IMG/VR virus record: IMGVR_UViG_3300014913_001316 | DNA: 62,933 bases | DNA from: a virus | Reading direction: 5' to 3' (one strand) | Shown here: positions 12,131 to 53,061 of the stretch, in pieces | Position numbering within the stretch: the first letter of the stretch is position 1 | Layout: each line of letters opens with the position of its first letter | Made by a program: the position numbers and the translations under genes | Notes under the pieces: generated by a model | Seen by the model: the letters and a program-made list of their open reading frames with translations, nothing else | Databases searched by the model: none | What the model was told of the DNA's origin: nothing

Positions 12131-12304
12131 TTATGTGAATTTCTTAGAAACGAGAAGGATTACAGTTATCACCGCAACTAACATCACTGGAAGGATTATA
12201 AAAAAAGGAGGAGAGAACAAGATATTTACTACTCCGATACATCCAAAGACTATAATGGATACTGCGAGTAGGAAACCAAATTTTTCATACTCTGATTTAG
12301 GCAT
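12131..12304 (-). CDS. 57-aa two-helix hydrophobic hairpin protein (not in ORF track)
   Basis: MPKSEYEKFGFLLAVSIIVFGCIGVVNILFSPPFFIILPVMLVAVITVILLVSKKFT; overlaps the stop of the 12297 gene. Confidence 0.65.
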   Translation of the reverse strand: MPKSEYEKFGFLLAVSIIVFGCIGVVNILFSPPFFIILPVMLVAVITVILLVSKKFT

Positions 12305-13538
12305 TTAGTAGCCACCGTATGAAACCTGGTAAGAAGAAGTCTCTGGGAATTGCTCCTTTTTCTTTAGTGGTAAAATGCCAGACATCTCCTTGTGTTTTTT
12401 CTCCATGTGGGTCTTTTACGTCTATTCTCCAATAATACGTGGTTTTGTAATCTACATCTCCAACATCGTACTGCCATACTATGTCTTTAGTTACATCTTT
12501 TTCCACTAATGGTGGTGGGTTTGTTGTTCCGAAATAAACATCACATTTAAGAGATTCCTCAGGGTCATTAGGGTCACTACACTTCCACATTAAATACCCA
12601 TCTGCATCTGCATCTATTGCTCCATTCTCTGGGTAAGGGTCTGATGCTTTATTTGGTGGTTTATTATGCTCAGGGTATTTGATTACTATTTTACTTAAAA
12701 CACTTCCATCTTTCAATTCATCTGCTTCAAAGTCGGCTAAATAGCCATACATGTAGCCCCAATCCATTAATGCACCCAAGGCTCTTACTTTTATAGCTGC
12801 TTGTACTTCAATATAGTAATAATTTCCCTCTATAAGTTTCTTTTCCGCATACATTTGGTAAAAATGTTTACCAAAACGGTCTTTAAGTACCATATGAATT
12901 ATAGGAATTGATTGGTCGTAACAAATATCTTCTCGGTCAGTCATAACGCCAGAGATTATAAAAAACACTACGGATTCTACAGAAATACATGCGTCTATAC
13001 CTGTAACCGACCCGTCATACCAGCCTTCGATATCATATTCAAAATGAATATTGTATTCATCTGTATACGGGGCACAATAATATATCCCATGTGTAATCCA
13101 TACAGTCATAGAGGCTTCTCCAGCCCCTGGACCTGCTACGGCAGCAACATGAGTCCATCCTTGGTATGCATCGGCTGTTCCTTCACAACCTGCTTCTGAT
13201 ATGCCCCATTTTTCCTCTTTATATGTAATATCATGTACTCCCCATGGGGGTTCAAATATCTCTGTTGTATAATCACCTGTAGACACGGTATAAGCTGGTT
13301 TTTGAATTTCAACATGCTCTGGAGTTGCTAGGTTTGGTTTAATCTTTACTTTTTCTATATATTCTGCAACTTCTTCATCAGTCATGTCTTTACAGTTTGG
13401 GTCAAAGTTTTTAATTAATTCTTCCATTGTATAGTTTTTATAGTTTTTAGTTGGTTTAGAAAGTTTTATAGCACTTGTATTACCTGCTAATATCAAAAAA
13501 CATACTGCGATAAAAATCGCAAAAATTTTTTTGTTCAT
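12297..13538 (-). CDS. Secreted surface protein with C-terminal Ig/FN3-like domain and amphipathic tail
   Basis: Signal peptide MNKKIFAIFIAVCFLILAGNTSA (start 13538, track 13592); domain NKPPNKASDPYPENG...YFGTTNPPPLV...TTYYWRIDVKD...WHFTT; tail FFLPGFIRWLL. Confidence 0.75.
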   Translation of the reverse strand: MNKKIFAIFIAVCFLILAGNTSAIKLSKPTKNYKNYTMEELIKNFDPNCKDMTDEEVAEYIEKVKIKPNLATPEHVEIQKPAYTVSTGDYTTEIFEPPWGVHDITYKEEKWGISEAGCEGTADAYQGWTHVAAVAGPGAGEASMTVWITHGIYYCAPYTDEYNIHFEYDIEGWYDGSVTGIDACISVESVVFFIISGVMTDREDICYDQSIPIIHMVLKDRFGKHFYQMYAEKKLIEGNYYYIEVQAAIKVRALGALMDWGYMYGYLADFEADELKDGSVLSKIVIKYPEHNKPPNKASDPYPENGAIDADADGYLMWKCSDPNDPEESLKCDVYFGTTNPPPLVEKDVTKDIVWQYDVGDVDYKTTYYWRIDVKDPHGEKTQGDVWHFTTKEKGAIPRDFFLPGFIRWLLNA

Positions 13539-13654
13539 TTCCTCTTTCACCCACATTGTAATATCTTTAGCAATATATAAAATTTGTGGCATAAATGATA
13601 CATTTTTTGACCATAAATGTTTTAAGCCTGCTCAGCATATTTTTTGTGATTACT

Positions 13655-13960
13655 ATGGATGATGAGGTAGAGAAAAAGATACTTGAAAAAATCAAAGAAA
13701 AAAAGAAAGAAATAGAAAAAGAACAGGAAAAAAAGAAAGGTATCCCTCTTGCATATTCCCAGATACAGTTTTACTCTAACATGCTTACTGAGTTATGGAA
13801 TAGACTAATGAGTCTACTCGGGACTAAAAACAGGGAAAGAGAAAAGGAAGAATTGTATAAACGGGCTGAAGAGTTAAAAGAATTACTGGAGTACACTGAA
13901 CTAGGTGAAAGAGCACGTAAGACTTTTGAACTTGCAGAAAAAGTTATTAAAGAAATTTAG
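13655..13960 (+). CDS. Charged helical hypothetical protein
   Basis: Likely start MDDEVEKK at 13655. Confidence 0.55.
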   Translation: MDDEVEKKILEKIKEKKKEIEKEQEKKKGIPLAYSQIQFYSNMLTELWNRLMSLLGTKNREREKEELYKRAEELKELLEYTELGERARKTFELAEKVIKEI

Positions 13961-14199
13961 GATAGTTTTTCAGCTATACACTTGTTGAACTCGCTGATAC
14001 CCCAGACAGTGCCACCTTTGTATTTGGATGCTCCTCTGCATGCTGCAGCTGCCTCAGCAAATGCACGGTTTTTCTCAACTACTCTAGCTGGTCTAGCACC
14101 TGGGTTGTCTGTCCATGCTACTGCACTGGATGGGAAGAATTTTCCGCCTGATTCTTTCAAAACAAATTTTTGCCCTAAAATGTATCCTCTCATTGCCAT
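13957..14199 (-). CDS. 80-aa basic protein, probably highly expressed (candidate nucleoprotein)
   Basis: Own promoter and strong AGGAGGT SD; helical FAEAAAACRG...FNKCIAEKL motif. Confidence 0.65.
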   Translation of the reverse strand: MAMRGYILGQKFVLKESGGKFFPSSAVAWTDNPGARPARVVEKNRAFAEAAAACRGASKYKGGTVWGISEFNKCIAEKLS

Positions 14200-14242
14200 A
14201 TTGTTTTTTTACCTCCTTATTGTTAACAGAATATGTAACACG

Positions 14243-14280
14243 TTATAAAAAAGTTACTGGTTTTAGTGGGAAAAACGGGT
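14243..14280 (-). promoter_or_regulatory. Promoter: CCC-N7-CCC, ACCAGTAAC, TTTTTATA
   Basis: Minus strand reads cccgttttttcccactaaaaccagtaactttttataa. Confidence 0.6.
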
Positions 14281-14285
14281 AAAAC

Positions 14286-15746
14286 TCATAGTAGGTCATC
14301 GGGTAGTTTTTGTCTTTTAAAACGAGGGAGTTTGAACGAGGGTAGTTTTTGTTTTTTATATAAGATTAATAGTAGGAGAACTATCAGTAATACTGGTAAG
14401 ATGTATAACAGTATGGATAAATCAGGGGTTTGTTCTACTGGTACTACTCCTGCAATTGTTTTTTCCGATGGGAGTAAAAGAGTGGAATCTGATGGTGTAA
14501 ACGTGAAAGTATAAGTGTTTGCTGAATATTTTGGTATCCAGATTGCTGAGCCACCTGAGAGAGAGATTGTTTTTATAGGTATGCCGTTTGATTTTATTTC
14601 TATTGAATCAGATGTGGAGATGGGTTTACCCTCGTTGTCTACTACTTGTATAAGTAATGGTGTACCGGGTTGTGCTTTTGTTACGATTTCATCGTTTTCA
14701 TTTTTTACAATTATATCTGTTTTTGTTTTAGCGTTGAAAAAAGCTGTTCCTTGTTGTGTACCTGTTGTTGCTGTGACAGTGTATCTACCGCTGAAGGGGG
14801 GGTTGAAATATGCTTTGCCTTCGGTATCCGCTGTATATGTCCATGTCATCTCATCTTTTTGTATTGTTACTTTTGCATTACTCTGTGTTTGTATTGTTGT
14901 TTCTTCACCTACTATGATGTGTTCTGGGAGGACTAACGAGAGTGGTTTTGGTGTAACATTGAAACAGGTTGTTGTTATTCCATCGAATACTTTTGCTGTT
15001 ACTTGCCATGTTCCTACTTCGTCTGTAACAATCGTTGTTTTTCCTTCCATGTTTGTTGTTCTATTGTATATTTCTCCAGATGGTTTTTTAATGGTTACCT
15101 CTGCACGTACTGGGTCTCCTCCACTAAATACTTGTATGTTTTGTTTTTCACCACTCTGTACTACAAGTGAACATTCTATATACAAGTTGCCTTTGTACTT
15201 GGATTGAATGACGAAATGTCTAGTATGCCCTTTGATTATTACTGTTGCATTCCCGTATTCTTCTTCATTTAAAGTTACAAGAGCTAAACCATCTTTCATA
15301 TGGAACAGGTATACATTGTTTGTTTCATCGCATAATATATACCCTGATGTGTTTTCTTGTGAAAAAGAGAGGATAATGTTTTTTCCAGCTTGTGGATGAG
15401 ATGGTATTACTGTGATTGTTTCAACTTCTGGTTCTACTACTGAAATATTTATTGATTGATTGTTTACCCATATCTTGTCTGAGAAGGGTGTGTCTTTTAT
15501 TATTACTACTGAGGTTGTTTTTGAAGAAATAGCAGGAATAGAAAAAAAGGTTTCATAAAAAAGGATTTTAGATGAGTTTGTTGATAAAGTTATGTTAACG
15601 GTATGGTTTGATGGGTTGTATATAGTTATTTCTAATAGTTCATACCCATCAACATAGGTAGTGTATGTTTCTGGAGTGATTGTTAAAGCCGATGCTGATG
15701 TTGATAGTATTGTTAATGTTAGTAGTAAAATAAGAATTTTTTGCAC
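14286..15746 (-). CDS. Secreted multi-Ig-like surface protein with C-terminal TM anchor
   Basis: Signal peptide ending SASA, repeated beta-sandwich motifs (YTADTEGKAYFNPPFSGRYTVTA), C-terminal TM plus basic tail. Confidence 0.75.
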   Translation of the reverse strand: MQKILILLLTLTILSTSASALTITPETYTTYVDGYELLEITIYNPSNHTVNITLSTNSSKILFYETFFSIPAISSKTTSVVIIKDTPFSDKIWVNNQSINISVVEPEVETITVIPSHPQAGKNIILSFSQENTSGYILCDETNNVYLFHMKDGLALVTLNEEEYGNATVIIKGHTRHFVIQSKYKGNLYIECSLVVQSGEKQNIQVFSGGDPVRAEVTIKKPSGEIYNRTTNMEGKTTIVTDEVGTWQVTAKVFDGITTTCFNVTPKPLSLVLPEHIIVGEETTIQTQSNAKVTIQKDEMTWTYTADTEGKAYFNPPFSGRYTVTATTGTQQGTAFFNAKTKTDIIVKNENDEIVTKAQPGTPLLIQVVDNEGKPISTSDSIEIKSNGIPIKTISLSGGSAIWIPKYSANTYTFTFTPSDSTLLLPSEKTIAGVVPVEQTPDLSILLYILPVLLIVLLLLILYKKQKLPSFKLPRFKRQKLPDDLL

Positions 15747-15758
15747 GTGTTTTTTCCC

Positions 15759-15962
15759 TCACTCTAACTCACGTGATGGAACTCCACGGTGGTGATATTT
15801 TATTGCTTGTAAAACTATTGTGTCGGGGTCGTTTGGATTTGTTTTTTTACGGATGATACATTTACCGTCTTCATCCATGACTCCTTTTAACGCAGCACAT
15901 GTTTCTGCGTCTAACTTATCAGAACGAAGTATTTCTTCATCTATTCTATCTCTTCTAATCAT
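15759..15962 (-). CDS. Small protein, Cys-x3-xG...Cys family
   Basis: TCAALKGVMDEDGKCII. Confidence 0.55.
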   Translation of the reverse strand: MIRRDRIDEEILRSDKLDAETCAALKGVMDEDGKCIIRKKTNPNDPDTIVLQAIKYHHRGVPSRELE

Positions 15963-16023
15963 TCAAAACCTCCACGCCTTAATATTATTCCCATTTTTTA
16001 TACTTTTCCCTTGAAACCCATTT

Positions 16024-16377
16024 TTAGAGACTTTTGATTTTGTATATCATCAATACATCATCTATTTTATAATAAAAAAATTTTAAATGTACATCGAGAG
16101 GAGGCGGGCACATTCCTTCTATAAAACACATCTGATACGTGTTTTTAGCAGTGCCATGGTATTCATCAGCAAGGGAGACATTCCAAATAGAAACAGTTTT
16201 ATTGTTAAGGTTTAAGGTCTGGTTTGTTTCTGCTGAATATACCACCCATCCTGTAACATATTGTTCTTTTACTGGTTGTTGTAAATCATTTATGTAAACA
16301 AAAACTATAACTGCTACCGTTATAACTATTGCTATCATCAAAATTACGCCTACAATGGCTGATACTGCTCTTCGCAT
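16024..16377 (-). CDS. Archaeal type IV pilin-like protein (class III signal peptide)
   Basis: MRRA|VSAIVGVILMIAIVITVAVIVFVY matches the archaeal pilin N-terminal (DUF1628-type) consensus KKA|VSPVIGVILMVAI. Confidence 0.8.
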   Translation of the reverse strand: MRRAVSAIVGVILMIAIVITVAVIVFVYINDLQQPVKEQYVTGWVVYSAETNQTLNLNNKTVSIWNVSLADEYHGTAKNTYQMCFIEGMCPPPLDVHLKFFYYKIDDVLMIYKIKSL

Positions 16378-16400
16378 GAAATAAAAATATGTTACGTGGT

Positions 16401-16447
16401 TAATATATTTTTCCCTTTTTTCCCATTTTGTGTGAAAAAGTTTTTAG
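16401..16447. promoter_or_regulatory. Divergent promoter region with CCC-N6-CCC
   Basis: CCC at 16413-15 and 16422-24; TATA-like AAATATATTA about 24 nt before the pilin ATG. Confidence 0.55.
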
Positions 16448-16698
16448 TATCAAAATAGATTTAAAAACGGTGATAAAATCTCTATAAGTAAAAAACTTGG
16501 GTTCTATGTATCTCTTAGTTTTCTTGTTTTAATCGCTAGTGGTTCATGGTCTATAGTATTATTTAACGATGAATTTGTGTTAGATAGGTTTTTAGCTAAT
16601 GGTTTTTTTACAGTAGCTGTAATGTGGATAACTGTAGTGTTTACTAGGCATTTTACTAAAAAGAAAGAGAGATGGAATGTGCCGAAGTAAACTACCGT

Positions 16699-16833
16699 TT
16701 AACTGTTCCATGAATGACCGCAGTTGGAACAGGTGAAAGAGTAGTATGGAGTTCCGTCTGCATCTGTGTACACGTTTCCAATTACTTCTTTTCCACAGTT
16801 TTCACAAATTTCGGTATGCATGATATCTCTCAT
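16699..16833 (-). CDS. 44-aa TFS/TFIIS-type zinc ribbon (not in ORF track)
   Basis: MRDIMHTEICENCGKEVIGNVYTDADGTPYYSFTCSNCGHSWNS; ATGA overlap with the upstream gene. Confidence 0.7.
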   Translation of the reverse strand: MRDIMHTEICENCGKEVIGNVYTDADGTPYYSFTCSNCGHSWNS

Positions 16834-17543
16834 ATTGTTTCTGGGTATTTGTTAAATTGAAACCAGTCTTTTTCGACAGGTGTTAAACATTTCTTTTTAA
16901 CAAGTTGTTTAATGTATCTTTCTACTGTTTTAGGTGAACGAATCCATTTAAGGTTGGTCAGTAGGTGTTTATGTATTTCTTCTCTTGTTATTGCTGTTTT
17001 TGATTCAGCAAGTTTTAGTATTTGGTCTTCAACTGGGTCGTATCCTCTTCTTATTTTGATTGGTTGTTTTTTTGTTTTTAGTTTTACTCCGCAGTAGTAT
17101 TTCCCTGCATGTTGGTATAGTAATCCACCAAGTGAGCCGTTGTGCATTTCTTCTACATATTTTTTTGCGATTATTGTGGATGTGAGAACTCTTTTTTCTT
17201 TGGTTAAATGTCGTATGATGTCTTCCAGTGTTGCCCCGTTTGATTGTTTAACATAGTAGTATATCAGTTGTATGAACGGGTTTTCACCTATGTATAGTAC
17301 GTCTTCTTCATGCATTAATGGTATTTCTTTCTCGCCTGTAGGGGTTATAATGTATTGTGGTTTCCTATATTGCGGGTCTGGCTGTAAAGGGTACATATGG
17401 TTTGTTAATGGTGTCCAGGGTATTGGCTCGTCTTCTGTGCCATCTGATTTTATAACCCGTATGATTGAATGTATAGGTGATGGGTTTTCAACGGCTATGT
17501 GTAAATCTGAGCCTGGTCTATTTGAAAGGATGAACCGTCGCAT
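16830..17543 (-). CDS. Tandem winged-helix DNA-binding protein
   Basis: Two wHTH-like segments (GATLEDIIRHL...; AITREEIHKHL...TVERYIKQLVKKKCL). Confidence 0.6.
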   Translation of the reverse strand: MRRFILSNRPGSDLHIAVENPSPIHSIIRVIKSDGTEDEPIPWTPLTNHMYPLQPDPQYRKPQYIITPTGEKEIPLMHEEDVLYIGENPFIQLIYYYVKQSNGATLEDIIRHLTKEKRVLTSTIIAKKYVEEMHNGSLGGLLYQHAGKYYCGVKLKTKKQPIKIRRGYDPVEDQILKLAESKTAITREEIHKHLLTNLKWIRSPKTVERYIKQLVKKKCLTPVEKDWFQFNKYPETI

Positions 17544-17985
17544 TTACATATTCTCCTACGTGTTGTTCTATTCTTTGTATTTCAAAAAATGGTTTAATCT
17601 CATGGGTGGTGTATATGTTTTGTAGTTCTCCTATAAGTTGTGCCCTTAGCATGTCATATTTGGATAAGTGTTTTTTTTCTATTGTTCGTGGTTTATCCTC
17701 GCCCCATAGGTAGAATGCTTTGTTGTTGATTAGGATTACTGGTGTGAATCTTCCACCTACTCTCTGGGAATACCAGTGGAAGAATTGTTCGTCTTTACTA
17801 CCAAGTGTACCGTTTATATCTACTATTTTTAAATCAATGAGTGGTAAAGGATGCATTCCTTCTTCTTGTAGTTTACGTGAGAGGATATCTCTTCTTGCTA
17901 TCATGTTTTCAAGTATGTGTTTTTGTACATAGTTGCATACTGGGCAGTTGTGTTCAATGTATATAGTAATAGTTGCTGTTTTCAA
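17518..17985 (-). CDS. Glutaredoxin/thioredoxin-fold protein
   Basis: ITIYIEHNCPVC (CxxC after beta1) and FTPVILIN (cis-Pro motif). Confidence 0.7.
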   Translation of the reverse strand: MKTATITIYIEHNCPVCNYVQKHILENMIARRDILSRKLQEEGMHPLPLIDLKIVDINGTLGSKDEQFFHWYSQRVGGRFTPVILINNKAFYLWGEDKPRTIEKKHLSKYDMLRAQLIGELQNIYTTHEIKPFFEIQRIEQHVGEYVNATVHPFK

Positions 17986-18743
17986 AGCTGTTCCTCCTCT
18001 TCCTTCGTTGCATATTTTGCTTCTATCTGTGCCAACCTGGTGGCTAACTCGTTTTCATCTTCACCTAGTCCTTCTGCTATATCCTGTATAGATATTCCTT
18101 TTTTTGCTAAAGTATATAATTCCTCATCACTAGCTTGTATTATCACTGGTGGTGCTATTATCTTCATGATAGATGTAAATAGTTTGCTAAATGATTGAGA
18201 TAGCTCGTTTAAAACACTTTCTTTGGGAGTGGCTGTTCTAAGTTTTCCAAGTGCTGCTTCGCATGCTCCTATGTTTTGCAGTATTACTGAGTAATAATTG
18301 TAAATTGTTCCTCCTATTTTTTTCATCTCTGGCTCTAACTCCTGTATTTCATCGAAACACCCTAAGATATATGGCATGTTTTCTTTTGGGTCTTGTAAGA
18401 AGAAAAAACGTAAATCCTCTCGGAGTAGCCGTAAACGTTCTATTGGAGTATGTATAAGGTATGATGTTCTACTGATTTCACCTAGCATACTGTATAGTTT
18501 TTTTGTTTTAGTGCGACCTGGGGAGTATGTACGTAAGACATAGTCGAATTCTTCAAACAAGTTATGGATTTTTTCACAATCAACGGTACGTGTCTGGTAA
18601 TATTTCAGTAATTCTTCTTTAAGCTGATTAGCATTATATGCTATTTCTTCATAGTCTCCCTCTGAAATGTTTCTAAAAAGTTTAGCCATATACTTTCTAG
18701 CATCTTCCGAGGGGAAAAGCCTAAGGCTCACCATGTTCCTCAC
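17982..18743 (-). CDS. All-alpha protein with C-terminal HTH
   Basis: ELYTLAKKGISIQDIAEGLGEDENELATRL. Confidence 0.6.
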   Translation of the reverse strand: MRNMVSLRLFPSEDARKYMAKLFRNISEGDYEEIAYNANQLKEELLKYYQTRTVDCEKIHNLFEEFDYVLRTYSPGRTKTKKLYSMLGEISRTSYLIHTPIERLRLLREDLRFFFLQDPKENMPYILGCFDEIQELEPEMKKIGGTIYNYYSVILQNIGACEAALGKLRTATPKESVLNELSQSFSKLFTSIMKIIAPPVIIQASDEELYTLAKKGISIQDIAEGLGEDENELATRLAQIEAKYATKEEEEQL

Positions 18744-19581
18744 CAGGTGATTGTTTTTCAGCAGGTGTTAAGTTTTTTAACAGGTTTATTATTTCTTCTT
18801 TCATCTTCCGTACATCTGTTTTTGTAGCATACTCTGTAAAACTACCTGCTCCTATCTCATCTAGTTTCTTTTTAGCCTCTGCTTGTTTCGTTGCAGCTTC
18901 TACAATTACATCAGCACTGTCTTTACCAAGTAGTTCTCCTCTCTTGCTTGCTCCTTTCATTTTTTCCTCGAGATATCCTTCTTCTTCAAGGCGTTCAGTG
19001 TATCTCTCTTTCAACATGTTTTTATAGTATTCAGCACGGTTTTCAGCGAGAGAAAGCCGCATTAAAAGGTTTGATACTTTTTCACGTAAAGATTTAGCTT
19101 CGCTACCATATGCTTCTGCTTCGCTTTGATGATGTTCTCGTTTTTTAATCTCCGCCTGCAACCGGTTGTTTAAATCTCGTATAATCCTGTTTTTTTCTTT
19201 AATTTCATCAAGCCTGTCTTTGATTTCATTAACCGTATGAGGATTAAGGAAATATTGAAAGTTTTCATCATCGTCATCATCGAGACTTGAAGAAGAACGA
19301 GCTGTTACCACTATGAAATCGTTTTTCATCTGTATAATATCTTCTAATTCCCCTGTTCTCTTGTTTTTTCTATCCAAGGGTTCTTCAAATTTTTTTCCAT
19401 CAACGGTTATTCCTCTAGCCCATAACCTCATAACTCCCCATGAGTGGTCGTATTTATGTAAAACCTTAGTAATTATGCCTACAAGTTCCATTCCTCTAGC
19501 TCGTACTAAAAATAAAAAAGGTGATTCACGAAATGGTTCAAGCTGACTAGCAATAGTTGAAAGAAGTTTTTTTTCATTCAT
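18721..19581 (-). CDS. Beta-rich N-terminal domain plus long coiled coil
   Basis: Heptad pattern over about residues 115-245. Confidence 0.65.
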   Translation of the reverse strand: MNEKKLLSTIASQLEPFRESPFLFLVRARGMELVGIITKVLHKYDHSWGVMRLWARGITVDGKKFEEPLDRKNKRTGELEDIIQMKNDFIVVTARSSSSLDDDDDENFQYFLNPHTVNEIKDRLDEIKEKNRIIRDLNNRLQAEIKKREHHQSEAEAYGSEAKSLREKVSNLLMRLSLAENRAEYYKNMLKERYTERLEEEGYLEEKMKGASKRGELLGKDSADVIVEAATKQAEAKKKLDEIGAGSFTEYATKTDVRKMKEEIINLLKNLTPAEKQSPGEEHGEP

Positions 19582-19591
19582 AATTTTTTCC

Positions 19592-19807
19592 CTATCTCTC
19601 CACCATTCGGTTGAGGGAGTTAACTATTTCAATAGTAACTTTTTGAATACGTACTCCTGGTTGGTTGTCTTTAATAAACATCAAGTGGTCGTTATCTTTT
19701 ATGTTTAAAATATCCCTGACTGCTTTGGGGAAAGTTATCCGTTTTCTTGATTTAACTTGTATAATTTTTATAATGGTTTCTTTTGGCTGTTCAACCATAT
19801 AAATCAT
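19592..19807 (-). CDS. AbrB/MazE/SpoVT-family DNA-binding protein
   Basis: QVKSRKRITFPKAVRDILNIKDNDHLMF. Confidence 0.8.
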   Translation of the reverse strand: MIYMVEQPKETIIKIIQVKSRKRITFPKAVRDILNIKDNDHLMFIKDNQPGVRIQKVTIEIVNSLNRMVER

Positions 19808-19825
19808 ATCGGAATGTGTTTTTTG

Positions 19826-19873
19826 CTTTTAATATTTTTCCCATTTTTCCCATTTTTCACAATGTTTTTAAAA
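19826..19873. promoter_or_regulatory. Divergent promoter (AbrB / radical SAM) with CCC-N6-CCC
   Basis: CCC at 19840-42 and 19849-51; TATA-like boxes on both sides. Confidence 0.6.
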
Positions 19874-19902
19874 CCAAACGATATTACAAAGCTGGTGATG
19901 GT

Positions 19903-21370: not shown

Positions 21371-21377
21371 AATTTCC

Positions 21378-21749: not shown

Positions 21750-21775
21750 GAAGGCTCACCTATTAGTTTTGAATT

Positions 21776-22257: not shown

Positions 22258-22325
22258 AAAATATCGGGAGGAAAGAAAACCTTTGGAGGCATGCTGTGTA
22301 GCAGATTCTGCCTAAGTTTTTTTCC

Positions 22326-23938: not shown

Positions 23939-23949
23939 TTTTTTTTCAC

Positions 23950-44645: not shown

Positions 44646-44829
44646 CTTTGCTGAATATGCTTTTGAATGCTATAACTGCTGCTATGAAATCATCAAACCA
44701 GCCTAGTATTGGTATGAAATCTGGTATGAAATCTATAGGAGATATGATATATAGTATCGCTAAGAATGCTATTATGTAGTTCCAGTATTTACTAATCTGT
44801 ATTTCGCCAACTATTGGTATATGTACCAT
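44638..44829 (-). CDS. DUF1232/YkvA-family small membrane protein
   Basis: YIISPIDFIPDFIPILGWFDD signature. Confidence 0.85.
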   Translation of the reverse strand: MVHIPIVGEIQISKYWNYIIAFLAILYIISPIDFIPDFIPILGWFDDFIAAVIAFKSIFSKGG

Positions 44830-44968: not shown

Positions 44969-46618
44969 TTAAATAAATTTTCTACCAAATGTTACAACGC
45001 CTAAACATCCTACAACCATAACTGCACCTGTTACATATGTAACTATGTCTATACCAACTTCTGGTGGAGAAGGTTCTGAATCACAGGCATCTCCTATTCC
45101 ATCACCATCACTATCTGCTTGGTCGGGGTTATAAGTATATGGGCAGTTATCCTGGTTATCTGGTATACCATCGTTATCACTATCTTGACCAGGTGTAGAT
45201 ATAGTAACCTGTGCAGAATCAGTACCTGTTTGACCTGCATCGTCTGTAACTGTCAATGTTGCTGTGTATGAACCTGTAGAAGAAAATGATTTAGAAACAC
45301 TCTGACCATATTTTGTATCTCCATCGCTGAATGTCCATTTCCACTGGGTATATGGCGGTGTACCGCCTGTTGCTGAACCAGAGAATGTGATACTCTCACC
45401 TGGTGTACCACTGTATGGTCCACCTGCTTCAACGGTTGGACCAGATGGTGGTTGCCCGCTTTCTACCGTAAAAGATGCTGTTTTTGTAACAAGTGGGTCG
45501 CCTGGTCCTGATTCAAATGGGTTAGTTTGGAAGTTTGCATCATATGCTCCAACCCAGATTAAGTGTTTTCCTTCACAGTAGCAGTAAATCCTGCCTTTTA
45601 TTGTAGAACTACTTCCTTTACCTATCTCTGCATATGCTGTTACTTGTTCTTTTAAAGCAACTGCTCCTGACTGGTACTCCCAGCTCGTCTGGTCATGTGG
45701 TGAAGTATATCCCTCTGGAGTGTTAGAAAATGTTTTACCTGCATCGTTTTTCCAAGTTGTGATAGAGTTTGCATGGAATATAGGAAGTAATGCTACTCCC
45801 ATTGGATATGTTGTTCCAAAACCTGATAGTTGATACATGGGTTGCCCTGATGATGAGTCGTAGACTAAATTGCTACGCCAGTTGCTATTCTCTGTTACTA
45901 CTTTGTAATATTGTGTATCCCATAATGCATCTCCTGTGGTTATCGACCCGCTGTTGTCTACATCTACAAAAACTGCAATCTTTACATATGGTTTACTCCA
46001 TGCTCCTCCTCCTGTACCAACATGGAATGTTATTTCAAAGTTTAAATAATCTCCTACATGTGGATTGGATGAAAAAAACGGAAACTTGACAGATGCTTCT
46101 TGGATAGATGGGTCTATCTGTATCGGTGAGCATTCCCCGCAAGTATTCAATGTTAAAAACTGTTGAGCAAGAGTGTTATCAACTGTTACCCCGCCTGTTT
46201 CTAGTTGCAATACGGTATCTTGAAAAGCTACACCAGCTGGCACTGAACGATACATTGGTACTGCTGAGAACATTAATGTAAATGCTAACAATATAAGTAT
46301 TGCAAAAGAGACGATGCCTGTATATGGGTGTGGTTTTTCAATAAACCGTATGACTTCTTCTATATGTGATAGAGAGAGTAGTAAAACAACAAGAGATGTT
46401 AACACTGAGCCTACTGCCATTATAGGGTTTATTGTTGTACCGCCTGTGAGGAAAATCCATGCTACTCCAAACCATAACCCTGTAGTCGCCCCTATCAAAC
46501 CACATAGTATTGTGAATACTGGTCTTTCACGGTCTTGAGAAAGCACAAGCGATGCAACTACTCCTGTCATTACGCCAAAAATGCTACATAATATTATTTG
46601 TGCTGATAATATTCCCAT
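44969..46618 (-). CDS. Polytopic membrane protein with large ectodomain, PKD, thrombospondin type 3 repeat and C-TM
   Basis: About 4 N-terminal TMs; [11 protein letters not shown]; [35 protein letters not shown]. Confidence 0.8.
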
Positions 46619-46845: not shown

Positions 46846-47490
46846 TTATTTTTTCACCTCTTTAATTTTTTTTGATTTCAATATAGATATAGATGTAATT
46901 AAACCTATTTTCCAAATATTTAAAACAATTATTGCAACAGCTACAAGCCATAATGGTATGGTTAAAATCAACAAACATGGGAGTTCCATGTTCATTTCCC
47001 CAATCCCTAGTATCCCATCTGCATGGATATAAATAGGGGCTTGAAGGTTTTCCATGAGAGAGCTTTCTCCTACATTGTATCTGTAGATGTGTTTTTCAAG
47101 GTAGTTTTCGATAATCCATATTTTGTTGTAAAACGTTAACTCCAGTCTCCATTGACCCTGTGTGGGGAATGCTGGTACACGTAAAAGTGGGTCTTCAATT
47201 GTTACCAGCCAATAGTCTCCTTTGTCTACTATTTTTTTTGTTGTTGTATCAATAACATATGCTTTACTGCCATCTGGTTTTATCAGTTCAAAACGTATTC
47301 TATCTGGATATTTCAAAGGTTTTTTACCAATACTATATGTGCTATAGATAGGCATTACGCTGTTTGCTGTAAGCGTCTGGCTTGTTGATGTTTGTTCTTC
47401 TTGGAGAGGAGTTATTTCTTGAGAATAAACAGGTGAAATAGTAAAAAGAAAGAAAAAGAGTACGATAGAGATTTTTAGGGTCTTGCCCAT
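46846..47490 (-). CDS. Secreted, C-anchored beta-sandwich protein (paralogue of 47475)
   Basis: Start MGKTLK at 47490 (track 47622); VPAF...G.W motif. Confidence 0.7.
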   Translation of the reverse strand: MGKTLKISIVLFFFLFTISPVYSQEITPLQEEQTSTSQTLTANSVMPIYSTYSIGKKPLKYPDRIRFELIKPDGSKAYVIDTTTKKIVDKGDYWLVTIEDPLLRVPAFPTQGQWRLELTFYNKIWIIENYLEKHIYRYNVGESSLMENLQAPIYIHADGILGIGEMNMELPCLLILTIPLWLVAVAIIVLNIWKIGLITSISILKSKKIKEVKK

Positions 47491-48179
47491 TCCTTCTTTG
47501 CCTCCCTCGTTGCACGTGCTATTCCTTTGAATAAGTCGACTGCTCCAGATATTGAACGGGTGTATATTATTGCAACTAATACTATCAAAGCTGGTATCCA
47601 TAGGAGGCTTAGTGGAAACCAAAACAATGCTGGAAATTTTATACCGAAGAAATAATTCGGTGCAATGAAAATGTTGTCGATTACTGAACCGCTAAGTGTA
47701 ACAGGTAATGCGAGATATTTTGCTTCTGGATTGTCTGCTGAAACGCCTTCTACAACCGTGCCATCTGCTAAGACAAACTCTGGTTTAGCAAGCCAGTTTC
47801 CTTTTTTAGCAAAAGCTGGAACTGTAAAAGATGTTGAATCAGCAAAAGCCCATTTCCCAGCATATTCTCCCTGTGTTATTTTCTTCTTAAAAGCAGGGGG
47901 GTGTTCAAAAGTGTATATTAAGTGAAAAGTTGGGTCATAAATCTTCCACCTGGCAACATTTGGTTCTACAGAAGAAATCCATGCATATCCTGTCTCCAGT
48001 GGACACTGAAGAGGTATATCGCTACCTGGTCCAAATGCCATATCAGAAGAAGTAAAACCTACATCTTGAAGTTCTACTGATTGAAGACTCTGAGTCTGAG
48101 CAGAAACAACTATAGCACCAGCTATTGTAAAGAAAAAAAGAAAGATAGTTGCAAGTAATACATTCCTTCTCGCATTCAT
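47475..48179 (-). CDS. Secreted, C-anchored beta-sandwich protein (paralogue of 46846)
   Basis: FTVPAFAKKGNW; SVIDNIFIAP. Confidence 0.7.
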   Translation of the reverse strand: MNARRNVLLATIFLFFFTIAGAIVVSAQTQSLQSVELQDVGFTSSDMAFGPGSDIPLQCPLETGYAWISSVEPNVARWKIYDPTFHLIYTFEHPPAFKKKITQGEYAGKWAFADSTSFTVPAFAKKGNWLAKPEFVLADGTVVEGVSADNPEAKYLALPVTLSGSVIDNIFIAPNYFFGIKFPALFWFPLSLLWIPALIVLVAIIYTRSISGAVDLFKGIARATREAKKEWARP

Positions 48180-48197: not shown

Positions 48198-49304
48198 TTA
48201 CTTTTTAATACTGTATAGCAAGACTATCAAAGCAATTACTGCTACTATGATTAACAGTATCAACCAGTCTGGTAATATAGCTGCTGGTGCTGGCGGTGTT
48301 GGTGCTACTGCCTCTGTCCATGTGAAAACAAACTTGTTCTGACTGTATGATTCTTTGATTGTAAGGTCTTCCATGACTATGCTACCTTGTTCCCATTCCT
48401 GTTCAACGCCGTTTAACTCTACTGTAAGTGTATCGTAGTTGAGTGTGTCGAATACGCCGTTGTATACATCATCAGTTGGTGTTACTGTCCAATCTACAAC
48501 ATTCGTGAGCAGCTCATCTGATTTAATGTAGATTGTTACTTCATGGGTTGTGCCTGATACGTCTTCATCTACATCATAAACGTATGGACCACGTTTTTGA
48601 TAGTTTACATATCTTGTTTTTTCAGCGTTGTTAGCTATACCTCCAACGTTGAAATAACTCGTTGGTTCTGATACTGCATGTGATGGGTATGTTACCGTGA
48701 TGTTTACATCATCGAGTTGATACCCGATTGTGTTGTTGATTGTGATGCTGTTGTTTACAGTCCAATACGAGGATGCAGAGGAAGTACCAACAGTTGGAGT
48801 TGTTACGTCTTTTTCTTTTGTAACTATGTTGTTCGAAAGCCATGTCGAAGTAATAGCCACATCTGTACCATAGACTCTTATTTTGATTATGTTGTTGCTC
48901 TTGTTTACATCAAAAGTAAAGTTTAGATATGTCTTACTCTGGCTGACTCCGCCACTTATTATATTAGATAATGTAGTATTACTCCAGTTGCCATCTGAAA
49001 CAGTTTCAGTTGATTTTATAGCAGTGCCGTCTACTGTTAAATTGTATGATATGTTTGCTCCATTTGCTTTGATTGCAAACATTGTAACTGTACGGTTTAA
49101 CTGACCTAGTTGACACGGTAGTGAAATGTTACGATAGGTTTGAGTTGTTGTAGAGTTATGCCAATATGTTACATCTATATCACATGTACCACTTGAGGGG
49201 GTAATGTCTTCTCTGTATGTTTTCCACGTTGCAGCGTTTACACTGATAGCACCAAATAGCAAGAAGGTTGCAAGTAGTATTGCGGGTAGTATGTAGCGTT
49301 TCAC
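48198..49304 (-). CDS. Secreted S-layer-like glycoprotein with Pro linker and C-terminal TM
   Basis: Signal peptide ending VNA, many sequons, PTPPAPAA-TM-KK. Confidence 0.75.
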   Translation of the reverse strand: MKRYILPAILLATFLLFGAISVNAATWKTYREDITPSSGTCDIDVTYWHNSTTTQTYRNISLPCQLGQLNRTVTMFAIKANGANISYNLTVDGTAIKSTETVSDGNWSNTTLSNIISGGVSQSKTYLNFTFDVNKSNNIIKIRVYGTDVAITSTWLSNNIVTKEKDVTTPTVGTSSASSYWTVNNSITINNTIGYQLDDVNITVTYPSHAVSEPTSYFNVGGIANNAEKTRYVNYQKRGPYVYDVDEDVSGTTHEVTIYIKSDELLTNVVDWTVTPTDDVYNGVFDTLNYDTLTVELNGVEQEWEQGSIVMEDLTIKESYSQNKFVFTWTEAVAPTPPAPAAILPDWLILLIIVAVIALIVLLYSIKK

Positions 49305-49353: not shown

Positions 49354-49959
49354 TTAGGTGCTCACCGTGAAGCTAACTGGTATTGCATAATTAGCGTCTG
49401 GCTGATATAGATATAAGTTACAATCGTATGTTTGTCCGTCTTGGAATGTACCATCAACTGCTTCTTCAAGGGTGAACGTTATCGTATAGGATGCTTCATC
49501 CCCTGGTGCAAGGTCTCCAATAACTGCTCCGCTAGTGTAGTCTCCATCATGGAAGAGTTTCTTGGTTACTCCCTGGATGGTTACACTAACCTCGGTTGCA
49601 GATGTTTCCAGGTTATCTGGGAGACCATCTGTTCCTGTTACTGGGTTGTACAGTAACAATACACAATCGTTCGCAGTTCGTGTTTCATCATCGTTAGATA
49701 TTGTCAATGTATCTGTTTTATCTGTCTCTGTATCTACCCCACCATCTGAATCAACCGTGGCACTATGGTTGAACGTTCCAGATGTAAGCGACATTGACAC
49801 ACTAGCTGGTGTTACCGCTGTTGGGGTTAGTGACTGTTGATACTGCATACCTTCTTGGAATGCTTCATTCACTTGTATGTCCATATAATAATAGACACCA
49901 CCTGCTGCAAAAATAGCTCCTATTAAGAGCCCGACTACCAATATTCCCATTTTGTTCAA
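49354..49959 (-). CDS. Candidate major structural protein: N-terminal TM/signal, Thr/Pro linker, TasA/CalY-like beta-sandwich
   Basis: Own TATA promoter, AGGAGG SD and terminator; LTSGTFNHS, TLTISND, GDLAPGDEASYTITF...TFQDG motifs. Confidence 0.6.
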   Translation of the reverse strand: MNKMGILVVGLLIGAIFAAGGVYYYMDIQVNEAFQEGMQYQQSLTPTAVTPASVSMSLTSGTFNHSATVDSDGGVDTETDKTDTLTISNDDETRTANDCVLLLYNPVTGTDGLPDNLETSATEVSVTIQGVTKKLFHDGDYTSGAVIGDLAPGDEASYTITFTLEEAVDGTFQDGQTYDCNLYLYQPDANYAIPVSFTVST

Positions 49960-50068: not shown

Positions 50069-50569
50069 TCAGCGATGCATTTTACATTCAAGTATATAAA
50101 TAAAACCTGTGAAAAACCAGTTTAAACTGAGTAAGTAAACCAATATAGGTAATGTTGAAATATGAGGTTCTACACTGTTGTGTGGTGCTACCTGCCCCAT
50201 ATAAATTACATTACAAATCCATTCGGGAGATGCGAAGAGGTCTATAACTATACAGGATACAATGAAAAATACAGATAAACCTATCCCTATTTTTAGAGAG
50301 AGGGGTAATTCTGGTGGGTAATAATACCTATGCGACCGTGTTTTTTTAGTTGAAATCTTTCTTTTTTTAACAAGTTCATCCAGATAGTTCACAATTGTGC
50401 CAGGTGCGAGGCTGTATGGTGGTTTTTCAAAAACATTACGGATGTCCTGTAAAGTAGTGTCTTTATCTTTCATCCACCGGTCTTCTACGAATTTCACCAT
50501 GAGTTTTTTGATTCTTTCTCGGTTCTCTGTTTCAGGTATTAAAACAAGTTTATGTTTAACTCCTTTCAT
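50069..50569 (-). CDS. Winged-helix domain fused to two C-terminal TMs
   Basis: TTLQDIRNVF...LAPGTIVNYLDELVKKRKI...RYYY followed by two hydrophobic helices. Confidence 0.7.
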   Translation of the reverse strand: MKGVKHKLVLIPETENRERIKKLMVKFVEDRWMKDKDTTLQDIRNVFEKPPYSLAPGTIVNYLDELVKKRKISTKKTRSHRYYYPPELPLSLKIGIGLSVFFIVSCIVIDLFASPEWICNVIYMGQVAPHNSVEPHISTLPILVYLLSLNWFFTGFIYILECKMHR

Positions 50570-50908
50570 CTATATCAACCCACTAAGCAAACTAAGCGGG
50601 TGTAGTTGTAATGCATCTAATACTACTGCAAAAAATACTCCTATAAGCAGCCATATTACAAAAGTCATAATTTTTTTTAAAAATATTAGACCAGATATTA
50701 ATAGTATAATTAATGAAATAACTCCTACAACTGTTCCTGTGCTTATAAACTGGATAATCGATGGGATGAAAGATGGTGTATCTGGTATTCCGTTTTGAAA
50801 AAAAGATGTGATGTGTTTCATAACTGGTTGTGCAAAGAAGAAACCTATTAGGAAACCACCTGCTCCTTTAACAAAACTCCACCAATCTATAATGGTTTTA
50901 CTACCCAT
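50570..50908 (-). CDS. Highly hydrophobic 112-aa membrane protein (candidate capsid or matrix protein)
   Basis: About 3 hydrophobic helices; TATA TTTATAAATA about 25 nt upstream (leaderless). Confidence 0.65.
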   Translation of the reverse strand: MGSKTIIDWWSFVKGAGGFLIGFFFAQPVMKHITSFFQNGIPDTPSFIPSIIQFISTGTVVGVISLIILLISGLIFLKKIMTFVIWLLIGVFFAVVLDALQLHPLSLLSGLI

Positions 50909-51027
50909 TAGTAAATATAAAACGTTATTTATTTATAAAGTTTTGGAAGAAAGAAAGAAAAGGGGAATGGGGGGAGGAGAAAATGGAAAAAAACTAGGTC
51001 CGGGAAGGCTTATCCCCTAACCTATAT

Positions 51028-51336
51028 CTATATTTCTATATTTCTTTTTTTTGCTTCTTTAGACATGCAATTAAGGTAAGGTATTAATCTGTTGCCTTTT
51101 GGATAGATTGATACTAATGCGGAGCAGTATTCTGCCATTTCTGAGAATTGTTTCCATCGTTCTCTTGTTTTTTCACTGACTTCTCCTTTTATTATGCGTG
51201 GGTTGCAGAACATTTTTTCTTGTTCATCTGTGAGTGTTCCTATGCATGCGTGTGACCAGCAGATGTATTTGCCATCGTATTCGTAGCAGGTGCAGGGTGA
51301 TGTTTTTGCTATTTCTTCATCTAATACGAAAGCCAT
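51028..51336 (-). CDS. Cys-rich hypothetical protein
   Basis: CTC...CWSHAC...C and helical FSEMAEYCS...YLNCMSKEA. Confidence 0.6.
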   Translation of the reverse strand: MAFVLDEEIAKTSPCTCYEYDGKYICWSHACIGTLTDEQEKMFCNPRIIKGEVSEKTRERWKQFSEMAEYCSALVSIYPKGNRLIPYLNCMSKEAKKRNIEI

Positions 51337-51358
51337 TAATATTCAATAGTAGTAAATA

Positions 51359-52432
51359 CTATTTAAATCCTTCTTTTCCTGTTAATGCTATGTACAACCC
51401 TGCTCTTCCTTTATACCCATGTGCCATACCTATATCGTCATAGACTGTTTTGAACTGTGTAGCAACATGGTATGCATCTCGTAAATACCATCGTGGTGAA
51501 AGAGTTGCTTCTGCTTTCCCAATGAGTCTGCCTTTATCCAAGTCTGTAAATTCTATAACTGCTGTTCTACTGGTTTCTTCTACGAGTGGCTCTGGTTTTG
51601 CACCAGTTGCTCCTTTGAAATCTGGTCTCTGTACGTCTTTGTTTATAGCTGCTGTAAACAGTGAATGGTATTCTTCATCGAATAAACCCAGCCAAGTGTC
51701 AAGCACGTTTAAAATTAAACCTGATACTGCTCTGAAACGGTCTATAATGTTTTCATCAGTAGGGTAGACGAAATCATGTCCTCTCAGCTCTAGGTTTCTA
51801 TCGTTGAGATGCTTTGGTGTTTCACCGATACTGGTGATGATTGTATCAAGTGATAAACCCCATAATCGTAGAGTAGAATAATAGGCGGTAACACGTCTAT
51901 CTATCCTAACCCGTAGTGGTGTATCCCTTGTTATCCCGTATTTTCTAACTATGTTTCGTGGTATCTCTGCCCTATATGCTTCAATAGTTGAAGGATATCG
52001 TGGTATACCTGGTGTTAACGTTGGTTTCTCTGGAATGTCTATCCATCTGCCGTTTTTGTAAATTTTTAAAAGTGTTACCGAAACGGGTACTCCACGTTTT
52101 TTTATCCAGTTAGCCCCAGCACGTATAGCTATACGTGGTAGTTTTTCACCAGCAGCAGTGGTATAATATGTCCATCTGAATACATAGATTTGGTTGATTC
52201 TATCTCCCATTACCTCTGACTCTGATGGTATAGTAAGATATACTGGTGTTGTTCTCTCAACTATTTCTGCTGTAACAGGATGAAACACGCCGTCTCTATA
52301 CGTGAGTTGGTTTGTCTCCTGCATCATGCTGATGAATAAATCTAAATCCTCTGATGTTGGAAAAAAATGAGAAAGTCTATCATAGAGTTCGTCACGGGTA
52401 TAATCTCTTGGGTAGATAATTATCTCTATCAT
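51359..52432 (-). CDS. Hypothetical protein with internal AbrB-like segment
   Basis: YRAEIPRNIVRKYGITRDTPLRVRI. Confidence 0.65.
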   Translation of the reverse strand: MIEIIIYPRDYTRDELYDRLSHFFPTSEDLDLFISMMQETNQLTYRDGVFHPVTAEIVERTTPVYLTIPSESEVMGDRINQIYVFRWTYYTTAAGEKLPRIAIRAGANWIKKRGVPVSVTLLKIYKNGRWIDIPEKPTLTPGIPRYPSTIEAYRAEIPRNIVRKYGITRDTPLRVRIDRRVTAYYSTLRLWGLSLDTIITSIGETPKHLNDRNLELRGHDFVYPTDENIIDRFRAVSGLILNVLDTWLGLFDEEYHSLFTAAINKDVQRPDFKGATGAKPEPLVEETSRTAVIEFTDLDKGRLIGKAEATLSPRWYLRDAYHVATQFKTVYDDIGMAHGYKGRAGLYIALTGKEGFK

Positions 52433-53061
52433 GTTATCGTTTCAATATGTTGTTTCGCTGATTGCATATAGTTCACTGATAATTTTAAGTAGTCTGCATC
52501 AGCATACCTTGCACCAAGTTTACCATAATACCCAGCCCATTTAAAGTCTTCTAACGCTTGTTTAAACTCATACTTCATTGTTTGAGCCTCTGAAGACAAC
52601 AAGTAAAAGTCATTTATTTGTGACAAGAATTCTTCGCTGTCATCCTCTAGTTTTTCACACCAATACTCTAGTTCATCTAAAGAGGATGTCGATGCAGATT
52701 CAGAGATTTTCTCCATGTCATAATATAGAGATATACTAACGGATGTTATCCAATCTTTTAGTTCTTCATCTTGCGTAGGCGTTACATCTGGTGTTGAAGG
52801 TTCTGAAGAAGGGGTTGGTGTTTCAAAGGTTTCAGATGTTGGTGCTTCTGGCATTGTTTGAGAGATGAGATATGCAAGAGAGACTATACATACAAGAGTT
52901 ATAACTGCTAAAATTACAACTGCTATCTGTAGTTTTTTATTATTTTTTTTCTCTTCTAACTTATACCCACAGTTTGAACAAAACTTACCAGTTGCTTCTG
53001 AGCCACAGTTTGGGCATTTCTTTATTTCTTTTTCTTCTATTTCTTCCAACATATCTATCAC
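52429..53061 (-). CDS. Zinc ribbon, TM and extracellular helical domain
   Basis: CPNCG...FCSNCG, TM, P/S/T linker. Confidence 0.75.
   Translation of the reverse strand: MIDMLEEIEEKEIKKCPNCGSEATGKFCSNCGYKLEEKKNNKKLQIAVVILAVITLVCIVSLAYLISQTMPEAPTSETFETPTPSSEPSTPDVTPTQDEELKDWITSVSISLYYDMEKISESASTSSLDELEYWCEKLEDDSEEFLSQINDFYLLSSEAQTMKYEFKQALEDFKWAGYYGKLGARYADADYLKLSVNYMQSAKQHIETIT

Follow-up and report, generated by a model that had tools for sequence, protein, structure and literature searches.

The viral record IMGVR_UViG_3300014913_001316 comprises 62,933 bases of DNA with a G+C content of approximately 35% (the whole stretch analysed, hereafter the window) and raises the question of what kind of genetic element would devote some 40 kb to membrane and secreted proteins and bear no recognizable capsid or packaging gene. 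The window is a mobile element, not a piece of chromosome. It very probably represents the nearly complete genome of one member of a hitherto undescribed family of extrachromosomal elements of archaea, the hallmark of which is a syntenic module of approximately 12 genes and not a capsid, and it is this conserved core and its family that are new here. The best explanation overall further includes a membrane-bound particle and, taken as a whole, is assigned a probability of roughly 0.45. The search for capsid and packaging genes is the usual route to archaeal mobile elements, and a family of this kind slips through it.

The assignment to a mobile element follows from several features taken together. 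No tRNA and no Rfam family is found in the 63 kb, nor does the window hold any housekeeping or rRNA gene; its replication and repair genes are minimal, many of its open reading frames (ORFs) match no family, and copies that are identical or 94-99% identical to it are present in at least six samples. The ENA contig ERZ27227317 (62,729 bp) is 100% identical to the window, pieces of which recur in SRR6478754, JGI 3300021495, ERZ27227322 and ERZ27247988, and a variant carried on a 26.4-kb scaffold from Guaymas Basin sample SAMN06251742 (L010) is 94-99% identical.

The conserved core lies at 41.6-50.9 kb, with its approximately 12 genes encoded on the minus strand; the frequencies given below derive from an all-against-all clustering of 25 relative loci. 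At one end, an archaeal signal peptidase I (41576-42034; 14 of 25 loci; Pfam Peptidase_S24) scores 61.6 bits against TIGR02228, above the cut-off of 51.85, and on this basis the core contains a dedicated SipW-type signal peptidase; the match to the SipW model itself (E = 3e-7) falls under the cut-off of that model. It is followed by a protein of 123 amino acids (aa) with four transmembrane (TM) segments by hydropathy (42010-42381; 15 of 25 loci), a membrane-anchored S8 subtilase (42363-43796; Pfam, 9e-17; 23 of 25 loci) and a hypervariable 274-aa bitopic protein (43821-44645) found in only 5 of the loci. The latter is 56% identical in a strain (L023) in which its neighbours are 95-98% identical, reflecting either a swapped cassette or strong diversifying pressure. 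Beyond a 63-aa DUF1232 membrane protein (44638-44829; Pfam, 2.8e-12; 9 of 25 loci) lies a 549-aa protein (44969-46618), of which the N-terminal part of approximately 400 aa, composed of four TM segments and an ectodomain, occurs in 24 of 25 loci and is fused in the window to PKD and TSP3 domains and a C-terminal TM segment. Next comes a pair of type-I membrane paralogues (46846-48179), one of 234 aa (47475-48179) and the other of approximately 214 aa with a probable start near 47490; the former is present in 10 of the 25 loci, with a 595-aa alternative in 15, and a paralogue of approximately 212 aa is present in 20. The module continues with the 368-aa hallmark protein (48198-49304; 25 of 25 loci) and a 201-aa protein (49354-49959; 22 of 25 loci) that is the best conserved of the module, and is completed at 50069-50908 by a 166-aa membrane-tethered winged helix-turn-helix (wHTH) protein (50069-50569) and a very hydrophobic protein of 112 aa (50570-50908). 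The wHTH protein, a Penicillinase_R-like Pfam match with two C-terminal TM segments, heads the module in 20 of the 25 loci. In comparisons of nearly identical strains, 95-98% identity is retained by the proteases and by the proteins of 123, 201, 234 and 368 aa.

The 368-aa protein bears a signal peptide, three β-sandwich domains and a C-terminal TM segment. Its AlphaFold model, built from 35 sequences, reaches a pLDDT of 89.9 and presents the first β-sandwich domain as a jelly-roll. Fold searches with this model (Foldseek against PDB and BFVD, VIA and ESM Atlas) returned generic folds only, with Z ≤8.2 and TM-scores ≤0.3, and residues 43-147 match jelly-roll, GOLD, macroglobulin and single-jelly-roll capsid sandwiches alike, a level of fold matching that is uninformative. 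In the 201-aa protein, a short N-terminus with charged residues precedes a 20-22-residue hydrophobic helix, which a linker of 20-35 residues, rich in Gln, Ala and Tyr, connects to a β domain of approximately 150 aa. It retains 52-60% identity to distant relatives, with 97.5-98% between strains, and its family comprises 94 representative clusters. No Pfam, PHROGs or PDB match was obtained for this family; the chains of TasA, AbpA and CanA remained unmatched by its profile in the PDB even at E = 10, as did Pfam Peptidase_M73 and camelysin, and the leads offered by ESM Atlas (DUF1102, CARDB and camelysin, at 0.80-0.81) lie below 0.9. Judged from sequence, the N-terminus has the appearance of a signal-anchor that stays uncleaved ahead of the linker, not of one cleaved next to a donor strand, and cleavage by signal peptidase I is disfavoured because the helix lies far from any Ala-X-Ala site. 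An assignment as a type IV pilin was considered and rejected: the weak profile match of the N-terminal helix to an archaeal pilin in the PDB (8fk7, E = 0.01) is compositional, and no class III cleavage motif recurs consistently among the homologues. The 201-aa and 368-aa families showed no relationship to one another by hhalign.

The family to which the window belongs is sizeable. Homologues of the 368-aa protein number 63, span 24-98% identity and are all metagenomic, residing on contigs of up to 119 kb, and a scan of JGI data for this protein gave 53 loci. The core keeps its synteny across several samples, in over 60 loci of metagenomic origin (contigs of 45-119 kb; shared, for example, across L014-L020), with the relatives originating from dozens of anoxic-sediment and hydrothermal metagenomes. 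A divergent primase, a mini-AEP and a 357-aa protein, each also encoded in the window, often lie near the core in these relatives. No family of Walker-A proteins occurs within 10 kb of the hallmark gene in the 25 relatives, the few motif matches being scattered and apparently spurious, and capsid and terminase genes are likewise absent from the 20-31 kb surrounding this gene, including the 10-kb left arm of a 62.4-kb contig, which holds only small ORFs, an IS200/IS605 insertion and homologues of the helix-turn-helix (HTH) and 357-aa proteins.

Collections of cellular, viral and plasmid genomes were scanned with one or two peptide patterns each or by tblastn, and the negative results below are limited to such patterns. 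The 368-aa and 201-aa families were not found in 185,579 GTDB species genomes; the 357-aa, 368-aa and primase families have no relatives in IMG/VR; and neither the 201-aa protein nor the primase has a match in PLSDB. Within INPHARED, the primase and the 368-, 201- and 112-aa proteins remained without a match and the 123-aa protein gave chance matches only, and no protein of the window matched those of spindle-shaped viruses other than weakly through the MCM helicase. An incomplete search of the literature revealed no prior description of the family. A preceding reading of the DNA from its letters alone (hereafter the sequence-only reading) had suggested an undescribed family, and this claim is a fair one in view of the absence of the family from the virus, plasmid and genome collections.

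The core is embedded in a larger block of membrane and secreted proteins at 12131-53061, tiled by 42 ORFs of at least 44 aa, of which 40 lie on the minus strand; a gene at 13595-13960 and a radical SAM gene at 19783-20862 are the exceptions. By Kyte-Doolittle hydropathy, N-terminal hydrophobic signals or anchors, or TM segments, are evident in 28 of the 38 ORFs of at least 80 aa, a share that rises to approximately 32 of the 42 when the 63-aa DUF1232 protein and other small ORFs are counted, and many of these proteins bear a C-terminal TM anchor in addition. Only 6 of 43 ORFs in the flanks carry such segments (Fisher p = 8e-8), and every protein of the window longer than 400 aa possesses a signal peptide or TM segment. 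The co-oriented membrane and secreted block of approximately 40 kb described in the sequence-only reading is therefore borne out, and so are most of the domains it named. Pfam places PKD domains at 44969-46618, 31488-32552 and 29884-31497, TSP3 at 44969-46618 and 23950-26484, Laminin_G_3 at 33023-37741, immunoglobulin (Ig) domains of the CarboxypepD_reg or Big_1-like types in four proteins of the block and Peptidase_S8 in two, and a radical SAM/SPASM enzyme is confirmed by Pfam and NCBIfam. The FN3 domains that were also named have no Pfam match in the block, and the propeller has as its sole basis a set of 123-129-nt (approximately 41-aa) repeats at 25660-27259 and a sub-threshold WD40 match.

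Some 19 kb of this block constitute a variable adhesin region (22326-41551, minus strand), delineated by repeat families D1-D8 and Pfam matches. Its most conspicuous members are a 1572-aa LamG giant (33023-37741) and three paralogues of 628-641 aa (28011-29936, 37750-39645 and 39665-41551), in which a signal peptide ending in a classical SRA|AS site follows a variable cytoplasmic head. The region also encodes a PKD-subtilase (29884-31497), proteins with PKD and Ig domains, repeat proteins of 844 and 303 aa, a 175-aa protein that shares the C-terminal domain of the 844-aa protein, and proteins of 208 and 338 aa. In a strain with 97% identity in the core, identity of the adhesin paralogues drops to 54-84%, and such a stable core alongside diverging exposed proteins would be the pattern expected, from sequence comparison, of a structural core with changeable receptor binders.

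No virus hallmark emerges from either the block or its flanks. The 80 ORFs scanned include no Pfam or PHROGs match to a capsid, portal, terminase or packaging ATPase (PHROGs was run on 20 proteins of the block), and Walker-A motifs, sought in ORFs of at least 60 aa, occur only in RFC (3890-4543) and MCM (6098-7027); both results uphold statements of the sequence-only reading. A third Walker-A match is spurious and sits in the probable upstream extension of the ORF at 46846-47622. The terminase large subunit and portal are absent from the 62.9 kb and a further 1.5 kb of leftward sequence by Pfam, PHROGs and Walker-A criteria, and an HK97-fold major capsid protein has no Pfam or PHROGs match among the 80 ORFs of a genome whose ends are missing. 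The only cytoplasmic protein of capsid size is the 357-aa protein, which has no fold match. Three small proteins are, by hydropathy alone, candidates for a hydrophobic α-helical major capsid protein of the SSV1 VP1 or His1 VP21 type (112 aa, 50570-50908; 123 aa, 42010-42381; 141 aa, 21776-22201), and none of them has a match in PHROGs or, by tblastn, in archaeal virus records; these searches connect no small hydrophobic ORF with a known structural protein of spindle-shaped or pleomorphic viruses. Of the pleolipovirus core, composed of a spike, an internal membrane protein and an NTPase, the last has no candidate in the window, where RFC and MCM are the only NTPases, and the type-I membrane proteins described above lack sequence or fold similarity to those of pleolipoviruses. 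The same P-loop inventory holds no VirB4-, TraG- or HerA-type transfer ATPase, and no integrase or recombinase family was matched in any scanned ORF. A pilin with a class III signal peptide is present (16024-16377; Pilin_N, E = 1.5e-7, above cut-off), and the window encodes no type IV pilus assembly ATPase (PilB/FlaI), platform protein or prepilin peptidase by Pfam and no further Walker-A protein; host machinery would therefore be needed for this pilin.

The replication and repair genes are arranged in two arms. The left arm (558-7027, plus strand) encodes, by Pfam match, Ku (558-1310), a minimal ATP-dependent ligase (1968-2765), a PCNA-like protein (3117-3812), a short RFC (3890-4543) and a short MCM reduced to its AAA+ and lid domains (6098-7027), the last two with Walker A motifs. 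The pairing of Ku with a ligase consisting of an adenylation domain only, in one co-oriented run (558-2765), is a hint of a linear stage of the element. End-joining pairs of this kind are seldom found in archaea or on mobile elements. The MCM is 24-27% identical to those of archaeal tailed viruses and TPV1, and its short form is shared by the relatives, closer members of which (P0167-P0175) are 50-61% identical and 684-819 aa long, the extra length being accounted for by inteins with LAGLIDADG and intein-splicing domains. One intein-bearing MCM is encoded on the same 12.1-kb contig as a homologue of the 368-aa hallmark protein. A second arm for replication and regulation (54712-61159, mixed strands) comprises, again by Pfam, the N-terminal part of a C5-methylase (54712-55320, minus), an HTH protein (55656-56267, minus), a mini-AEP (59386-59682, plus), an RNase H (59687-60262, plus) and a divergent AEP primase (60362-61159, plus), of which the primase, mini-AEP and HTH are common to relatives (L012, L015 and L018). 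No DNA polymerase is found in the window, and its replication proteins represent the archaeal toolkit in the versions carried by mobile elements. The methylase ORF, of 202 aa, covers positions 3-80 of a 324-position Pfam profile and may be truncated or split.

Between the core and the second arm, three minus-strand genes (51028-53061) encode proteins of 102, 357 and 210 aa, the last with a zinc ribbon and a TM segment. The gene for the 357-aa protein (51359-52432) adjoins the primase and mini-AEP in relatives; because it travels with the primase genes, it is assigned to an early or replication set and not to a coat. Its AlphaFold model is confident only for residues 1-190, which are β-rich, the C-terminal half being poor, and neither a fold match nor anything usable from an ESM Atlas feature search was obtained. 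The protein may serve as a replication initiator or origin-binding protein.

The best explanation overall extends this element to a membrane-bound particle, which could be a plasmid vesicle or an enveloped virus of pleomorphic or spindle type, and spread by such a particle is put at somewhat less than even odds. It is preferred because it fits a stable membrane core, changeable adhesins, dedicated proteases, the Ku-ligase pair and the lack of a capsid or transfer ATPase. From the gene content, topology signals, conservation, synteny and lack of known hallmarks, which are established, we infer the assembly of a coat and of any particle. Approximately 30 element proteins would be driven through the host Sec pathway and trimmed by the signal peptidase and subtilases of the element to build a membrane-embedded protein coat with its adhesins facing outward. 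In what is the least certain step, the coated membrane would then leave the cell with DNA as an enveloped particle or vesicle, the adhesins would choose the recipient cell, and incoming linear DNA would be resealed by Ku and ligase before being replicated by the PCNA, RFC, MCM, primase and RNase H of the element along with the host polymerase. A bolder and rather more doubtful version would regard these elements as capsid-less archaeal viruses or 'plasmidions', in which host-derived membrane is studded with the glycoprotein-like β-sandwich proteins of the element. Such a lineage would be new and widespread, without kinship to either pleolipoviruses or spindle viruses, and would deserve the rank of a new family or above; its coat proteins would be matured by its own signal peptidase and subtilase, and its adhesins could be swapped.

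Several observations weigh against a particle. A virion or vesicle has no positive evidence in its favour, the window yielded no ATPase for packaging or budding, and PHROGs, tblastn and fold searches revealed no protein that resembles a known structural protein of spindle-shaped, pleomorphic or other archaeal viruses. Neither end of the contig is closed, so that hallmark genes may lie in the missing piece, and the absence of the family from collections is weak and suggestive, at one or two patterns per scan. The sequence-only reading had proposed an unusually large enveloped or spindle-shaped virus or a vesicle-borne element; what stands of this is a mobile element without recognizable capsid or packaging genes, and nothing establishes it as a virus, spindle-shaped or enveloped; a plasmid-like element with a cell-surface module explains the same data. 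A plasmid-like element that forms no particle, and whose module and adhesins remodel the host surface as a filament, matrix or adhesive layer, is nearly as likely, though doubtful in its own right. The benefit might be biofilm formation, attachment to partner cells or cell-cell contact for transfer of the element. The layout of a wHTH protein, a subunit of approximately 200 aa, a protein of approximately 400 aa and 4-TM proteins resembles the bundling-pilus (ABP) operon of Pyrobaculum, where a 410-aa protein with three β domains lies directly downstream of a 204-aa subunit, and by this analogy would fit a surface filament just as well (PMC9245690). The dedicated SipW-type signal peptidase of the core, the true archaeal pilin, the lack of a packaging ATPase and the absence of the whole family from IMG/VR are consistent with this alternative. 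Against it stand the lack of any resemblance, in sequence or profile, between the 201-aa family and TasA, AbpA, CanA or Peptidase_M73, the signal-anchor and linker of the 201-aa protein in place of a cleavable signal peptide beside a donor strand, the absence of a VirB4, TraG or HerA transfer ATPase, and the failure to find the module in the GTDB species genomes with the patterns used, an absence which would be odd for a useful cellular appendage.

Two further explanations fare less well. The window could belong to a tailed or icosahedral virus whose capsid, portal and terminase genes are either unassembled or too divergent to be recognized, with the block acting as an oversized set of host-recognition and accessory genes. 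Archaeal head-tailed viruses that encode PCNA, RFC and ligase are known in the magroviruses, the MCM is weakly similar to those of archaeal tailed viruses and TPV1, and the contig is open at both ends, with a variant that extends 1.5 kb further to the left. Such a virus is nonetheless improbable, given that no such gene and no third P-loop NTPase appears in 63 kb plus this extension, that all proteins above 400 aa are membrane-associated or secreted by their signals, that the surroundings of the hallmark gene in relatives are equally negative, that relatives' contigs of 55-71 kb leave little room, and that IMG/VR, which is built on such hallmarks, holds no relative. More improbable still is a piece of chromosome from an uncultivated, small-genome DPANN-like archaeon rich in surface proteins. 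Giant LamG and PKD surface proteins are common in such archaea, the G+C content is low, and the ESM Atlas clusters nearest to the 201-aa protein, which score below 0.9, bear the labels Bathyarchaeota and Aenigmatarchaeota. This explanation is countered by the lack of any housekeeping, tRNA or rRNA gene, the truncated mobile-element forms of the replication proteins, the failure to find the family in the species genomes with the patterns used, the gain and loss of gene cassettes that distinguish strain variants, and homologues binned in four unrelated phyla. The four NCBI bins concerned are labelled Thermococci, Thaumarchaeota, Deltaproteobacteria and Thermoplasmatota, which is the pattern of mis-binned mobile DNA, and the Thermoplasmatota host that had been suggested earlier is therefore unsupported. 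The relatives of the MCM were also considered as a guide to the host and set aside, the longer homologues being intein-bearing copies of the same family without taxon names.

The check for circularity and terminal repeats called for by the sequence-only reading found no direct or inverted repeats between the window ends, and no repeat is common to the right end of the window and the 1.5-kb leftward extension of the variant; ORFs run off both ends and both long contigs are open. The variant reaches 1,495 bp past the left end, where it adds three small genes without a family match. Neither an HK97 capsid or terminase gene nor host genes, the flanking content that would speak against that reading, are found in this extension or in the flanks of relatives, the contig itself being unclosed. 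Near the right end, an AT-rich intergenic stretch (62560-62800) contains GGG-rich boxes and a tandem repeat of 25 bp (62655-62705) that looks perfect, and independently made assemblies break within this stretch or no more than approximately 0.9 kb away. The 62,729-bp ENA contig stops inside it at 62702, the window ends 231 bp beyond, and a 97% identical JGI contig (Ga0190348_1000086) begins near 62055, a position obtained by arithmetic. The stretch could be an origin, a terminus or an assembly-breaking repeat.

Thirteen small minus-strand ORFs of 82-185 aa without Pfam matches occupy 7258-12067; some of them are lost or exchanged in strain variants, with deletions evident in L010. A third sub-module (12297-22201, minus strand), outlined by Pfam, NCBIfam and hydropathy, encodes surface proteins of 431 and 486 aa, the archaeal pilin (16024-16377, minus), cytoplasmic proteins of 237 (wHTH), 155 (thioredoxin-like), 253 and 286 aa, the radical SAM/SPASM enzyme (19783-20862, plus) and small membrane proteins of 173, 123 and 141 aa. 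The set composed of the 237-, 155-, 253-, 286- and 486-aa proteins and the radical SAM enzyme is conserved in relatives (L052, L054 and L061). A recurrent GGGAAAAA(A/T)GGGA-type motif is placed, in either orientation, beside TATA-like boxes upstream of several genes of the block (12091-12127, 14225-14279, 16386-16446, 19813-19856, 22222-22258 and 27973-28009; repeat families D12, D14, D17 and I2) and looks like a predicted binding site of one regulator. Among the relatives, the IS200/IS605 insertion noted above is a pair consisting of a TnpA Y1 transposase and a TnpB/Cas12f-like protein (L075, 5957-7686). To the left of this pair two assemblies differ, one with small ORFs and the other with Fer4, CCG-domain and FAD-oxidoreductase genes (L076, 1265-5946) that are followed by homologues of the small ORFs at 8401-8775 and 10982-11326 of the window.

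The significance of the family depends on which explanation is correct. A transmissible particle would add a new route by which DNA passes from one archaeon to another, and would turn the 201-aa and 368-aa proteins into a new set of hallmarks by which such elements can be found, and a cell-surface structure would make this a rare mobile element with a complete surface-remodelling kit, including its own signal peptidase. On either reading, the 201-aa and 368-aa families are usable as probes.

Several known systems resemble the element in part. Borgs share a low G+C content, long co-oriented gene runs and many extracellular or membrane proteins of PEGA and TSP3 types. The present element is ten times smaller, the pervasive perfect tandem repeats of the Borg type are absent from the window and no terminal inverted repeats are seen, and its relatives reside in marine vent sediments. 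The AbpA/AbpB operon is, by description, similar in its subunit of approximately 200 aa, its protein of approximately 400 aa with three β domains, and its 4-TM and wHTH proteins (PMC9245690), and the TasA-TapA-SipW system of Bacillus is similar in its dedicated SipW-type signal peptidase. Unlike AbpA and TasA, with which it has no detectable sequence relationship, the 201-aa protein of the window looks signal-anchored, and its module is carried on a mobile element and was not found in cellular genomes with the patterns used. A plasmid of approximately 50 kb from Halorubrum lacusprofundi, pR1SE, which Erdmann and co-workers reportedly described in 2017, is said to encode vesicle membrane proteins that carry the plasmid to new cells without a capsid. 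To our knowledge, pR1SE, with its haloarchaeal host, has neither a comparable adhesin arsenal nor a signal peptidase, and we know of no homology to the window.

The same vent sediments of the Gulf of California harbour large spindle-shaped archaeal viruses whose genomes, of 40-76 kb, combine a structural arm with an enzymatic arm (PMC9894754), and their counterparts in the Thermococcales conserve lectin-like adhesins (PMC12934983). The large spindle-shaped viruses (Itzamnaviridae and Tepeuviridae of ANME-1, PAV1/TPV1-like viruses of Thermococcales and Bicaudaviridae) resemble the window in their genome size, two-arm genome and lack of an HK97 capsid or terminase, as well as in lectin or LamG-type adhesins that are conserved yet variable. 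Their small, hydrophobic, α-helical major capsid protein was not recognized in the window by PHROGs or tblastn, and the core of the window is instead composed of β-sandwich membrane proteins and proteases. Pleolipoviridae and Thalassapleoviridae, enveloped and pleomorphic, are likewise capsid-less and have membrane proteins as virion proteins, and the type-I topology of their spikes, with a signal peptide and a C-terminal anchor, matches that of the 368-, 234- and 214-aa proteins. The genomes of these viruses measure 7-17 kb. Their conserved NTPase has no counterpart in the window and no sequence or fold match connects the two, and the window combines approximately 30 membrane and secreted proteins with proteases of its own.

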